Part shown: one piece after another, positions 26,401 to 29,400 of the stretch
Numbering within the stretch: the first letter of the stretch is position 1
How the letters are laid out: the number at the start of each line of letters is the position of its first letter
Origin: an uncultured Lachnospiraceae bacterium
GTDB lineage: Bacteria > Bacillota > Clostridia > Lachnospirales > Lachnospiraceae
Length of the DNA: 64,000 bases
Assembly: GCA_900550475.1 (NCBI GenBank)
Contig: URSA01000005.1
Location: 24,275 to 88,274, forward strand
Direction: 5' to 3'
Made by a program: the position numbers

Positions 26401-29400
26401 TAGGACAATTTTCTTTTTACTTTCCTGAGCTTCTCTGACTAAATTCACCATATTTTCCTCCGCTTTCTTCAAATAATCTTCTTCAGCTACTCTTTCACCA
26501 GATAGTAGTTCATTAACCGTTATCTCTAGTTCATTACATAATGGAAACAGTAATGATACTTCCGGAAAACCATTTCCTCTCTCCCATTTTGAAATTGTTT
26601 TGTCACTGATTTCTAATTTTTCTGAAAGCTTTTTTTGCGTATATCCTTTTCGTTTTCTTTCATCAGCGATAAATTTACCAATCTTGATTTGATCCATCCG
26701 TTTTCCTCCTTTCTGATTTGATTATCCTATGATTTGATTATCAATCACACCCACGCGACGTAGAATATGGTGAATTTATGCGGTTTCTACGCTCCGTAGA
26801 GTAAAATACCAATTTACTGGTCTGTTCCATCGTATCATACGGCTTTCGTTTACGCAAGAAAAGTCCCTGCAGCCATTACTGCCGGGACTAAACTGTTTTA
26901 CGAACATCCTCACTGGTCGGTTGCTTTTCGTTTCTTTTTTATATACAAAAGGTGCAATTTTATATTGACAAAATGTACCCCGTTTGATAGAATCAAAAAC
27001 GGTGATTGCAAAAAACGGTTTTTGCAGTGACGATGCTGCTGTGGCTCAGTCGGTAGAGCGTCGCATTGGTAGTGCGGAGGTCACGGGTCCGATTCCCGTC
27101 AGCAGCTCTGAAAAAAGTCCTTGTTCTTCAAGGACTTTTTTGTTGCTTACCACATCCATTCTCAATTCTTTCTCCGCCCTTCCCCTGCTTGCTCTCTCCT
27201 GTTCATTCCATGACCTTTCTTTATCCTTACCTTGCTTATTCCTTCTCTGCTTGCTCCATATCCGTCCCCTGTTCCTGCAAACTCACTATCCAAAATATGT
27301 CTGCCCTTCTACCCAATGATTGCGAATTGTATCTCTGTGACATTTTTTCCTTTTTCAGATCCCAATTTACTATTTTAGAGGCTGTTTAGGATGGTCAAAA
27401 AAGCAAATTTGTATCCCAGCAGATTTTTTGTCATTCCGGATCCCAAATTTTGGCGATTTGTGGGATCCGGTAATGCATTTTTTCTTTCTGGGATACAATC
27501 GAGCGCTTTTCTTTCTATTATGTAAACCTATGATGTGAGAAATTGGGATCTAAATTGAGAATTTTTTGAGCCCAGATACAATCCACTTTCAGGGAAAGCC
27601 GGTTCTTATTCCCCGGTGAATAAAACCACCCAGTATACGGTGCCATTCAATGCCTGATAAAGTGCCACGCCGGCTTTCGTATAGTCGGCGCACAGGATAT
27701 TTTCGCTGTGTGCGCCGGATTTCGTCCATTTGCCTACCACGTTTTCAGCCGTACTGAGCGATCCCTTGGTTGATGCCAGATTTTCCCCGCAAGGGGTGAC
27801 TCCTGCAATATCCGCTCCCCTGCTCCCGTCCGGTCTGGTGTGGGAGAATGATACCTCAAGCTCTCCTGCCCGGATCTGTGCGGCTGCTGCCAAATTATCA
27901 TCCCATTCAAGGACGGTAAGCCCCGCACCTGACCGCTGTGCATTGATCAGATCAAACACCTGACCTGCCATTGCGGACAAATCAAGGGAAGAGGCGCCAT
28001 CCGTATTTCCGGAGTTTTCGGTCGTATCAGCACCCGGCGTGCCCTCGCTTGCGCCCGATGCACCTTCCCCCGGCATACCATCATTTGCGCCCGATGCACC
28101 GCCGCCCGACGTACCTCCCCCTGCCGCACCATTACCAGGCGCTCCTGCATTTGTGTCAGACATGCTGTCTCCTGCCGCGCCCGGCGCACCCACACCAACC
28201 ATTCCAACGCCCTCGCTCGCATCCGCCGCACCGTCTCCCGGCGCACCCATGTCTGTGCCCGTCATGCCGTCTCCTGCCGTACCTATGCCCGACACAGACA
28301 CATCTTCACTCTCCGCGCCATCCCCCGCCGAAACGGTATCCGCCGGTGTTCCGTCTTCCGTCCTGTCTGCAAGGCTTTCATTTTCAGGCGGCAAAAATTC
28401 GGCGGCAGGCATTTCGCCCGCCGCCGGGGTAAGCTCCGTCTGTATATTCACTTTCTCGTCAACCGATGCCGTCCCGCAGCCCACAAAAACCGTCAGGAGG
28501 ACTGCAGCCACCGGCACTGTCCATCTGCGCATGAAGCTTCCTCACTTTTCCGATGTATTCTAAGCAGTTTCCTCGCCCGGATGCTTTGCATACAGGATCT
28601 TCAAAATAATAGGGGTGGAAATACTGGAAACAATGATCAGCAAAATCACGGCGGTAAAATAGACCGGTGTCAGAAGCCCGACAGACAGTCCCTTCTGTGC
28701 CACAATCAGCGCAACCTCTCCTCGGGTCATCATCCCCACTCCGATTTTCAGGCAGTCATAGCCTCTGAAGCCGCACAGCCGCGACATCAGACCGCAGCCG
28801 ATGATCTTTGCCACCAAGCCCACCAGCACAAAGCAGGCGGAGAACAAAAGAATCGCTCCCGTCACATTGTCAATGTTGGTTTTCAGTCCGATGCTGGCAA
28901 AGAATACCGGGCCGAAAAGCATGTATGAATTGATGTCCATCTTCTCCGCAATATAGCCGGAATCCTGTATGGAGCAAAGGATAATTCCCGCCACATAAGC
29001 TCCTGTGATGTCTGCAATTCCAAACCATTTCTCCGCCGCATAAGCAAAGAAGAAGCAAAGCGCCAGACCGATAATAGGGATTCTCCTTGTATGGGGATAT
29101 CTGCTGTCAATCTTCTTAAAGATCCAGTAGATCACGAATCCCACCACGAACGCAAAGGCAAAGAACAGAACCGTGCTCAGCACCACCTTCCCGGGATTGG
29201 AATCCGGGTTTTTGAAGCCGATCACAAAGGTCAGCACCACAATGCCGATCACATCATCGATGATCGCGGCGCTTAAGATGGTGGTTCCCACCGTTCCTTT
29301 CAGCTTACCCATTTCTTTCAGGGACTGTACCGTAATGCTGACGGAGGTTGCCGTCAGGATGGTTCCCACAAACACAGCCTTGTAAAACTCCTCGCTGCCC

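Follow-up and report, generated by a model that had tools for sequence, protein, structure and literature searches.

We analyzed a 64,000-nucleotide (nt) stretch of DNA from an uncultured Lachnospiraceae bacterium (GenBank assembly GCA_900550475.1, contig URSA01000005.1, positions 24,275-88,274; hereafter the window, to which all coordinates without a contig handle refer). An initial annotation had drawn attention to two look-alike non-coding elements in this stretch. Both were confirmed, with bounds refined to 27326-27582 (copy A) and 62277-62533 (copy B), each 257 nt long and read here on the plus strand. They belong to a real repeat family that had not been described before, although its general kind is known.

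Modular Architecture of Copies A and B

Each copy contains an internal duplication (repeat-finder families D2 and D11), and scanning for it revealed a module structure. An element consists of four 39-nt modules of the form ATTGTATC-N23-RGATCCCA in the order + + - -, modules 1 and 2 being direct and modules 3 and 4 inverted, with segment lengths of 39-43-39-15-39-43-39 nt that sum to 257 nt. The 15-nt segment is a central loop with the consensus ATTTTTCCnGATTTG, which sets the polarity of the element ("+"). In copy A, module 1 (27326-27364, plus strand) reads ATTGTATC-N23-AGATCCCA with a run of six T inside N23, and module 2 (27408-27445, plus) reads TTTGTATC-N22-GGATCCCA, again with six T, being 1 nt short and carrying one box mismatch. 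The loop (27446-27460, plus; AATTTTGGCGATTTG) is followed by inverted modules 3 (27461-27499, minus) and 4 (27544-27582, minus), the latter with a terminal box, GATACAAT, that includes an outward-facing -10-like hexamer, TACAAT. The layout of copy B is the same: module 1 (62277-62315, plus) with the box variant ATTGTCTC, module 2 (62359-62397, plus), loop (62398-62412, plus; ATTTTTCGTGGTTTG), and inverted modules 3 (62413-62451, minus) and 4 (62495-62533, minus).

All pairs of the four nested inverted repeats drawn in the initial annotation are present in A and B, namely P0 (attgtatc/gatacaat), P1 (agatcccaat/attgggatct), P2 (ttgtatcc/ggatacaa), and P3 (rgatccca-N15-tgggatcy). These four "helices" reduce to two 8-nt boxes, P0 and P2 being box1 and P1 and P3 being box2. 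In their extended forms the boxes read (G)ATTGTATC and RGATCCCAAT, lie 31 bp apart from start to start (three helical turns), and are related by an imperfect inversion (ATTG-T-ATC vs. ATTG-GG-ATC on the other strand). In its own orientation, the module consensus is nnGATTGTATCC-n7-A5-7-n6-TTTC-AGATCCCAATT. A run of at least five A or T occurs in 20 of 27 modules (A in 14, T in 6), starts at positions 8-11 of N23, and lies midway between box1 and box2. P2 is indeed extended in B (CCCGGATTGTATCC / GGATACAATCCGGG), to 14 bp rather than the 15 reported. Identity between A and B was 71.6% over the central 148 nt, in agreement with the earlier overall estimate of about 70%. We rejected coding potential for the elements, given that the overlapping open reading frames (ORFs) differ in frame and content between the copies and are not conserved.

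Family Members and Distribution

Searches with nhmmer (using a family hidden Markov model) and BLAST found A and B and no other copy in the window. When public metagenomes were scanned for a single module, with one exact 18-nt module match required, 46 loci came back, of which 19 were real, all of them from human-gut assemblies. The 19 fall in eight distinct chromosomal loci, here lettered A to H, and the family comprises at least eight loci with the same architecture. The loci are represented as follows: A by the window copy (winA), L060, L077, and L063; B by the window copy (winB), L079, and L066, and later also L119 and L120; C by L049, L076, and L082; D by L056, L081, and L051; E by L058 and L064; F by L061, L070, and L075; G by L078 and L087; and H by L084.

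Seven loci were found in a single metagenome, ERZ779737, which holds A and B at ≥99% identity, so these seven belong to the source species. Source-species strain contigs carry A and B unchanged, A being 100% identical in three of them and B 99.6-100% identical in nine. Sample ERZ1026854 holds A, C, D, and F at about 90% identity and so represents a sister species; all four of the sister-species loci recovered correspond to loci of the source species. Loci present in both species are A (L063), B (L066, L119, L120), C (L082 vs. L049/L076), D (L056 vs. L081/L051), and F (L061 vs. L070/L075). Homologues of a protein neighboring an element were labelled Lachnospiraceae.

Over 895 kb, a sequence-blind search by geometry (an 8-mer at 0 and +82, with the same 8-mer reverse-complemented at +167 and +249) returned family members only, with zero false positives. 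The three-block exact pattern had no match in the 185,579 GTDB representative genomes, and the one-module pattern gave 13 single matches there, all chance-like; the two inspected, in mouse-gut Eubacterium metagenome-assembled genomes, read as coding. The source species is evidently absent from the GTDB representative collection scanned. Viral contigs (two patterns) and plasmid and phage BLAST searches yielded nothing or chance single-module matches, and no copy occurred in around 260 kb of sequence drawn from five Lachnospiraceae species that are more distant. In these searches the family was confined to one human-gut Lachnospiraceae lineage, the source species plus its sister species. In the literature we found no described family of this kind, and a search by box sequence led to unrelated primers only.

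Conservation of Boxes and Spacing

The same two boxes occur in the four modules at all eight loci. The distance between them is N23 in 33 of 36 modules and N22 in the other three, and the 39-43-39-15-39-43-39 layout holds in every full copy except for 1-nt indels in three copies. Spacers and N23 segments of paralogous loci are near-random in sequence (only 13-22 of 43 spacer positions match their mirror partner), whereas the boxes, segment lengths, central tracts, and 15-nt loop consensus are kept. Insertion of one miniature inverted-repeat transposable element (MITE) into another was rejected as a general origin, since the 82/54/82 spacing is identical at eight diverged loci and neither outer spacer mirrors the other; a single ancestral nested insertion event is possible as the origin of the layout.

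Between orthologous pairs, changes fell on 6 of 320 box positions (1.9%) vs. 73 of 965 elsewhere (7.6%; 7.2-10.7% by region), i.e., boxes changed about four times more slowly (Fisher p = 7.7e-5), and there were no indels. The boxes are thus under measurable purifying selection at orthologous loci. The earlier description of a non-coding repeat that carries nested inverted repeats and is under selection is supported. That pairing is conserved better than sequence, as had also been proposed, is misleading: the paired segments are the conserved boxes, the same in all four modules, and the recurrence of the same boxes in all modules and loci argues for sequence-specific recognition rather than mere complementarity. 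The unpaired motif TTATGTMAACCTAT, previously described as a conserved part of the element, is real in A and B and absent from the other family members, and therefore reflects shared ancestry of these two copies, not a family feature. We also rejected GATC avoidance or restriction-methylation as an explanation, as GATC is over-represented in the window (443 observed vs. 391 expected).

Fixation in two species at orthologous loci, purifying selection on the boxes, helical-turn spacing with a central A/T tract, and the failure of our searches to find a transposase partner, a target-site duplication, or plasmid or phage copies would all suit a host nucleoprotein site that was never mobile, that is, a lineage-specific phased array for a nucleoid, segregation, replication, or regulatory protein. 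Residual spacer similarity between loci and the shared loop argue instead for one duplicated 257-bp master copy. Elements that occur in either orientation, most of them at the 3' ends of genes, resemble insertions, and modules have been lost at two loci while the loci themselves were retained. We regard a never-mobile host site as rather unlikely.

Folding, Pairing, and the RNA Question

The lead interpretation of the nested pairs had been a structured non-coding RNA (ncRNA) whose pairing is maintained by covariation. Predicted folds are strong, with A reaching -85.9 kcal/mol on the plus strand (z = -6.3) and -90.4 on the minus strand (z = -9.7), and B -92.5 (z = -8.0) and -106.2 (z = -8.2), respectively; for each strand of each copy, none of 200 dinucleotide shuffles folded as well. 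Superimposing the arms as mirror images shows almost complete pairing in the boxes, moderate pairing over the adjacent 3-6 nt, and pairing no better than chance, or worse, everywhere else; in the tract columns, which are anti-paired, T mostly faces T. Over the four-helix structure, 79.6% of cells pair vs. 76.4% in shuffles, pairs with changes on both sides number 20 vs. 21.7 in shuffles, and the 21 of 70 pairs that are invariant are box positions. All four box helices were recovered by RNAalifold, in which covariation contributed -1.83 of -41.9 kcal/mol. Counts of G-U and A-C (51 vs. 39) show no strand bias. The compensatory change reported in P3, G-C in A and A-T in B, exists; it sits at the R/Y position of box2 and is concordant in only six of nine loci. 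A hairpin within the module (box1 with box2) was rejected because there is no covariation and C stands opposite A in 13 of 27 modules.

Rfam scanning of both copies, as the initial annotation had proposed, gave no match in gathering or E-value mode: only tRNAs reach the gathering score, and the best sub-threshold match scored 28 bits vs. a cutoff of 56. The elements show neither the covarying helices nor the consistent transcribed strand that generally mark a structured ncRNA. The 23 x 23 and 43 x 43 "internal loops" that the structure would contain, invariant in length and near-random in sequence, are unlike RNA, and the exchange of A-runs for T-runs argues against RNA as well, as the two are interchangeable in duplex DNA and not in RNA. 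With boxes reused, tracts swapped, orientation mixed, and covariation weak, the structured-ncRNA reading is not supported. In particular, an independent ncRNA gene would agree with the very low folding energies and the strand-specific conservation of the 15-nt loop. Its conserved parts would nonetheless be repeated boxes with A/U tract swaps and not covarying stems, its orientation is random to context, and neither an Rfam match nor a conserved flanking promoter or terminator accompanies it, making such a gene very improbable.

No conserved flanking promoter was found at the copies. The sole promoter-like feature is the outward-facing TACAAT in box1' (GATACAAT; 27555-27582 and 62422-62451). 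In A, a -35-like hexamer, TTGAGA, lies 16 nt upstream of TACAAT, matching 10 of 12 consensus positions together with it. Inside A and B there is no intrinsic terminator site (GC-rich stem, 3-8-nt loop, direct T-run); T-runs occur 8-9 nt past an 8-10-bp stem with a 15-nt loop.

Genomic Context

As described earlier, a minus-strand stop codon lies close to each copy, 24 nt from A (27606) and 33 nt from B (62566), and the 200 nt on the far side are CT-rich (74 and 70% pyrimidine, respectively); the plus strand of the window is the C- and T-rich strand throughout. Every element is downstream of at least one gene. Relative to loop polarity the flanking genes are convergent at three loci, tandem at five, and divergent at none; with gene orientation mixed in this way, read-through would meet the element in either orientation. 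A tie between polarity and replication strand was rejected, GC skew being negative at three loci, positive at four, and near zero at one. There is also no recurrent neighboring gene: the neighbors are ordinary housekeeping genes without a repeated partner, and include by Pfam a beta-CASP RNase, GH3, GH5, GH25, a thioesterase, and aconitase, along with two that we take from reading their sequences to be Dtd and GlgP.

This placement would suit an RNA-level 3'-untranslated region (3'-UTR) hairpin, comparable to enterobacterial repetitive intergenic consensus (ERIC) or repetitive extragenic palindrome (REP) sequences, that is read through from the upstream gene and stabilizes, terminates, or exposes the mRNA to RNase III/E, its palindromic form letting it work in either orientation. 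Each copy follows at least one gene (at the 24 and 33 nt given above for A and B), none lies between divergent genes, both strands fold strongly, there are a few complementary double changes beside the boxes, and Correia and ERIC elements are known to act at the RNA level on upstream mRNAs (PMC10969869). Such a hairpin leaves the kept box sequences, the invariant spacer lengths, and the A-run/U-run swap unexplained, its helices would be 8-12-bp islands between 23 x 23 and 43 x 43 loops, and neither a stem plus T-tract terminator nor a G-U vs. A-C strand bias was detected. We consider a 3'-UTR hairpin unlikely as the main explanation.

Several further features were observed near the two window copies. 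Two tRNA-Thr(GGT) genes, 100% identical, lie 4002 nt apart (23033-23105 and 27035-27108), and the segment between them, right next to element A, has a GC content of 0.43 vs. ~0.53 and encodes helix-turn-helix, abhydrolase, and acylphosphatase proteins, giving it the look of an island at tRNA-Thr. Beside B, an aldo-keto reductase gene (62566-63568) is split into 72 + 198 + 64 amino acids (aa) here and 270 + 64 aa in other strains, and looks like a decaying pseudogene. Between B and a TetR gene is a small Cys-rich ORF (…CPCKRKKCERHGKCDECRKHH…; 61921-62151, minus strand) without a Pfam match, at whose site gene callers place an overlapping 51-aa ORF in another frame.

Instability at and Within the Elements

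In the sister species, copy A (L063:12509-12652) has lost its inner module pair exactly at the foot of the inner hairpin, and copy C (L082) has lost one module. Tandem repeats lie ≤16 nt from an element end at four of eight loci (B, E, F, and H); these end-associated repeats are locus-specific and vary between strains or species. Next to B, a 41-nt unit is repeated 2.4 times (62168-62264), 13 nt from the module-1 end, and this array is one of only two in the whole window that score ≥50 in Tandem Repeats Finder (TRF). Its units include a degenerate box1 and the first part of N23 (ATTGTCTCTGGCAAA), and so appear to have arisen by duplication across the boundary between element and flank. The repeat at E has a period of 36 nt (L058:4806-4883), that at F, seen in one strain, has a period of 23 nt and spans the element end (L070:2487-2536), and that at H comprises ten 15-nt units (L084:5594-5748). 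The CT-rich low-complexity flank of A (27150-27320) holds a 16-nt repeat (TRF, 2.0 copies at 27213-27244), the unit of which reaches 4.6 tandem copies in the sister species (L063:12741-12813). Contigs L021, L022, L051, and L063 end close to or inside elements.

Outside module 4 at locus E (approximately L058:5138-5190 and L064:7366-7418), a fold-back copy of the terminal box (GGATACAATTTTGTATC…) is followed by a second, direct copy (TCTGGATACAAT); the fold-back copy looks like snap-back repair at the element end. In L063 (12946-14851), the tRNA-Thr beside A is reduced to its last 26 nt by a low-GC insert encoding a lipoprotein and a ribbon-helix-helix-like protein, and at its end the contig has part of A a second time (module 2-spacer-module 1, 14757-14851). 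This arrangement is either an island with part of an element or an assembly cycle through the repeat. A 574-bp indel beside an element at locus C (L049:1692-2270 vs. L076:4168-4180) contains a double-zinc-ribbon ORF and is bounded by a 10-bp direct repeat, TTCCCATCAT; with this repeat it resembles a duplication or deletion of the usual microhomology type, and we rejected it as a cassette.

The tandem arrays that cross an element junction and the fold-back copy of an end, which resemble the tandem module amplification proposed for bacterial interspersed mosaic elements (BIMEs; PMC2817692), bring to mind a single-stranded DNA hairpin element handled by an HUH/Y1-type enzyme in the manner of REP doublets forming hairpins (REPINs) with REP-associated tyrosine transposases (RAYTs), or of IS200/IS605, in which the folded arms are recognized and the ends nicked. 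Such an enzyme would leave no target duplication and would amplify modules of end plus flank in tandem, as in BIMEs. The nested hairpin potential, some double changes at helix feet, and the lack of a target-site duplication would fit such an element. We found no conserved flanking di- or tetranucleotide among nine copies inspected, no short tight hairpin with a guide sequence, and no covariation within the module, where C meets A in those 13 of 27 modules. Orientation is unbiased relative to replication, and no RAYT, TnpA, or other Y1 or HUH transposase gene lies within ~6-10 kb of any copy. The only HUH gene found, that of a pMV158-type plasmid replication protein (Rep_OBD, E = 3e-41; L070:2974-3741), is 468 nt from the element at locus F and is absent from the same locus in L061, which has a 453-aa ORF on that side, and L075, which has unrelated sequence. 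All in all, a hairpin element of this type seems improbable.

Comparison With Known Repeat Classes

The REP/ERIC-like and MITE-like alternatives named in the initial annotation were the right kind of thing. Like the MITEs Correia/NEMIS of Neisseria and RUP of pneumococcus (PMC10969869), the elements are non-coding, shorter than 500 bp, and bounded by terminal inverted repeats (ATTGTATC…GATACAAT, within 39-nt inverted modules), with several dispersed copies in one genome (at least eight loci, seven of them in one metagenome). They likewise lie between genes in either orientation, for the most part close to the 3' end of a gene, and have long hairpin potential and possible outward -10-like hexamers, and their central A/T-rich, bendable segment recalls the IHF site of Correia. 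Unlike MITEs, they come without a target-site duplication, a known parent insertion sequence or transposase, or an observed filled/empty polymorphism, number only about eight copies, and carry two putative binding-site copies per arm at a fixed 82-nt spacing. They also differ from dead MITEs in that, at orthologous loci, boxes and lengths have been retained around a near-random interior.

Short conserved units that alternate in orientation at regular intervals with unrelated sequence between them, species specificity, location at gene ends, and long-term vertical persistence are shared with REP/BIME/REPIN sequences, which bind the host proteins IHF, gyrase, and Pol I (PMC2817692), and the tandem amplification of unit-plus-spacer modules, variable between strains, is shared with BIMEs. 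REP units are 20-40-nt imperfect palindromes with a GTAG-like 5' head, whereas here there is no GTAG and the units are 39-nt bipartite box pairs containing weak pseudo-palindromes (ATTG.ATC / GAT..CAAT) rather than tight palindromes of 20-35 nt. Copy number also appears to differ, with eight loci from the exact 18-nt module search against hundreds of REPs (typically >100 per genome), and no RAYT gene was seen near the copies. RAYT-associated REPs have been described from Proteobacteria, with no mention of Firmicutes or Clostridia in PMC2817692, whereas the host here belongs to the Lachnospiraceae.

With ERIC (also called intergenic repeat units, IRU; PMC10969869), the elements have in common an imperfect palindrome of ≥100 bp, a place in transcribed intergenic regions, stability at orthologous loci, and size variants produced by internal insertions or deletions at fixed points. 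There is no sequence similarity, the phylum is another, and ERIC is conserved over its whole length whereas these elements are conserved only in the boxes, central tracts, and loop. Integron attC sites were rejected on sequence (ATTGTATC and GATCCCA boxes), on length (257 bp), and for want of a cassette array; attC sites have R''/L''…L'/R' boxes with a GTTRRRY core, span 57-141 bp, and adjoin cassette ORFs. The inverted repeat/direct repeat (IR/DR) ends of Sleeping Beauty-type transposons, and those of Mu and Tn7, have inverted arms with two direct protein-binding sites each, in which spacing and bending matter. Two direct modules per inverted arm and outermost bases that include TG…CA (ATTGTATC … GATACAAT) are reminiscent of these ends, from which the elements differ in that the arms are only 15 bp apart, a transposase gene lies neither between them nor close by, and target duplications of the TA or 5-bp kind are absent.

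Interpretation

We favor the reading that A and B are lineage-specific, non-autonomous, palindromic modular DNA repeats of the MITE/REP-BIME/ERIC class, each an array of four bipartite protein-binding sites, and give it about an even chance of being right. The reused boxes, invariant spacing, A/T tract swap, and indifference to the direction of transcription and replication argue for duplex-DNA recognition by a sequence-specific protein, dispersal in both orientations from an apparent single master copy points to a mobile origin, and fixation at orthologous loci together with slower box evolution suggests continued use. From these observations, the restricted copy family, and the end-associated tandem repeats, we infer protein binding to the boxes, a mobile origin, and a route of instability. 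Each 257-bp element would offer one sequence-specific DNA-binding protein four bipartite sites, two direct and two inverted, with the A/T tract midway in each site narrowing or bending the duplex; the binder would most likely be a recombinase, a transposase, or a protein domesticated from either. The family may have spread once, in the common ancestor of the source and sister species, with insertion in either direction and for the most part a short way downstream of a gene, and would have stayed at the same loci ever since. Boxes and spacing would still be selected, the protein presumably still binding. The inverted arms could extrude as a hairpin or cruciform, or the bound protein could act as a roadblock; either could stall replication or attract nicking, giving rise to internal deletions and to tandem and fold-back duplications at the ends.

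Several observations weigh against this reading. No direct repeat flanks any of nine copies inspected, so the target-site duplications that a MITE might have left, and that may fade as a copy ages, are missing. No empty site was recovered, the relatives at 74-87% protein identity having neither the element nor local synteny. Mobility is thus read solely from dispersal in both orientations. Exact 16-18-nt module patterns searched in GTDB representatives, JGI metagenomes, and viral contigs uncovered no autonomous parent, i.e., a transposase gene with the same ends, and no binding protein was found. Because the search pattern needed one intact module, fully decayed copies would escape it. A strand-specific profile scored 239 vs. 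104 bits, and the loop and the preponderance of T-tracts on one strand make the element directional, for which a simple symmetric array of binding sites would have no need. The covariation score exceeded that of all 500 shuffles (0.202 vs. 0.143 ± 0.010), and cells with double changes were above shuffles, although related sequences are known to inflate both measures. The excess of complementary double changes beside the boxes (e.g., alignment columns 19/260, 91/187, and 11/268) hints that intrastrand pairing, as single-stranded DNA or RNA, matters too. The elements are probably transcribed in part, and an RNA-level effect is possible.

A more far-reaching version of the protein-bound repeat, which we offer as doubtful, is that the elements, far from being dead MITEs, are working chromosomal "landing pads," on whose four phased bipartite sites a lineage-specific domesticated recombinase or transposase, or an architectural factor, assembles, with nicking or road-blocking at the ends generating tandem arrays and fold-backs. 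Assembly on phased sites would explain why boxes and distances stay constant while the rest drifts.

Implications for Lachnospiraceae Genomes

Dispersed intergenic repeats have hardly been described in the Lachnospiraceae, a dominant human-gut family. The strict layout and the purifying selection on the boxes set this repeat family apart from decaying transposon debris and imply a protein partner. In practical terms, the elements break metagenome assemblies and mark strain-level length variation, and they could serve as landmarks for strain typing or engineering. If their ends provoke tandem duplication, they would be a natural model for the genesis of repeats near structured or protein-bound DNA. 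Should the landing-pad reading be true, they would represent a new protein-DNA system that leads to local variable number tandem repeat (VNTR) variation beside housekeeping genes in a gut commensal.

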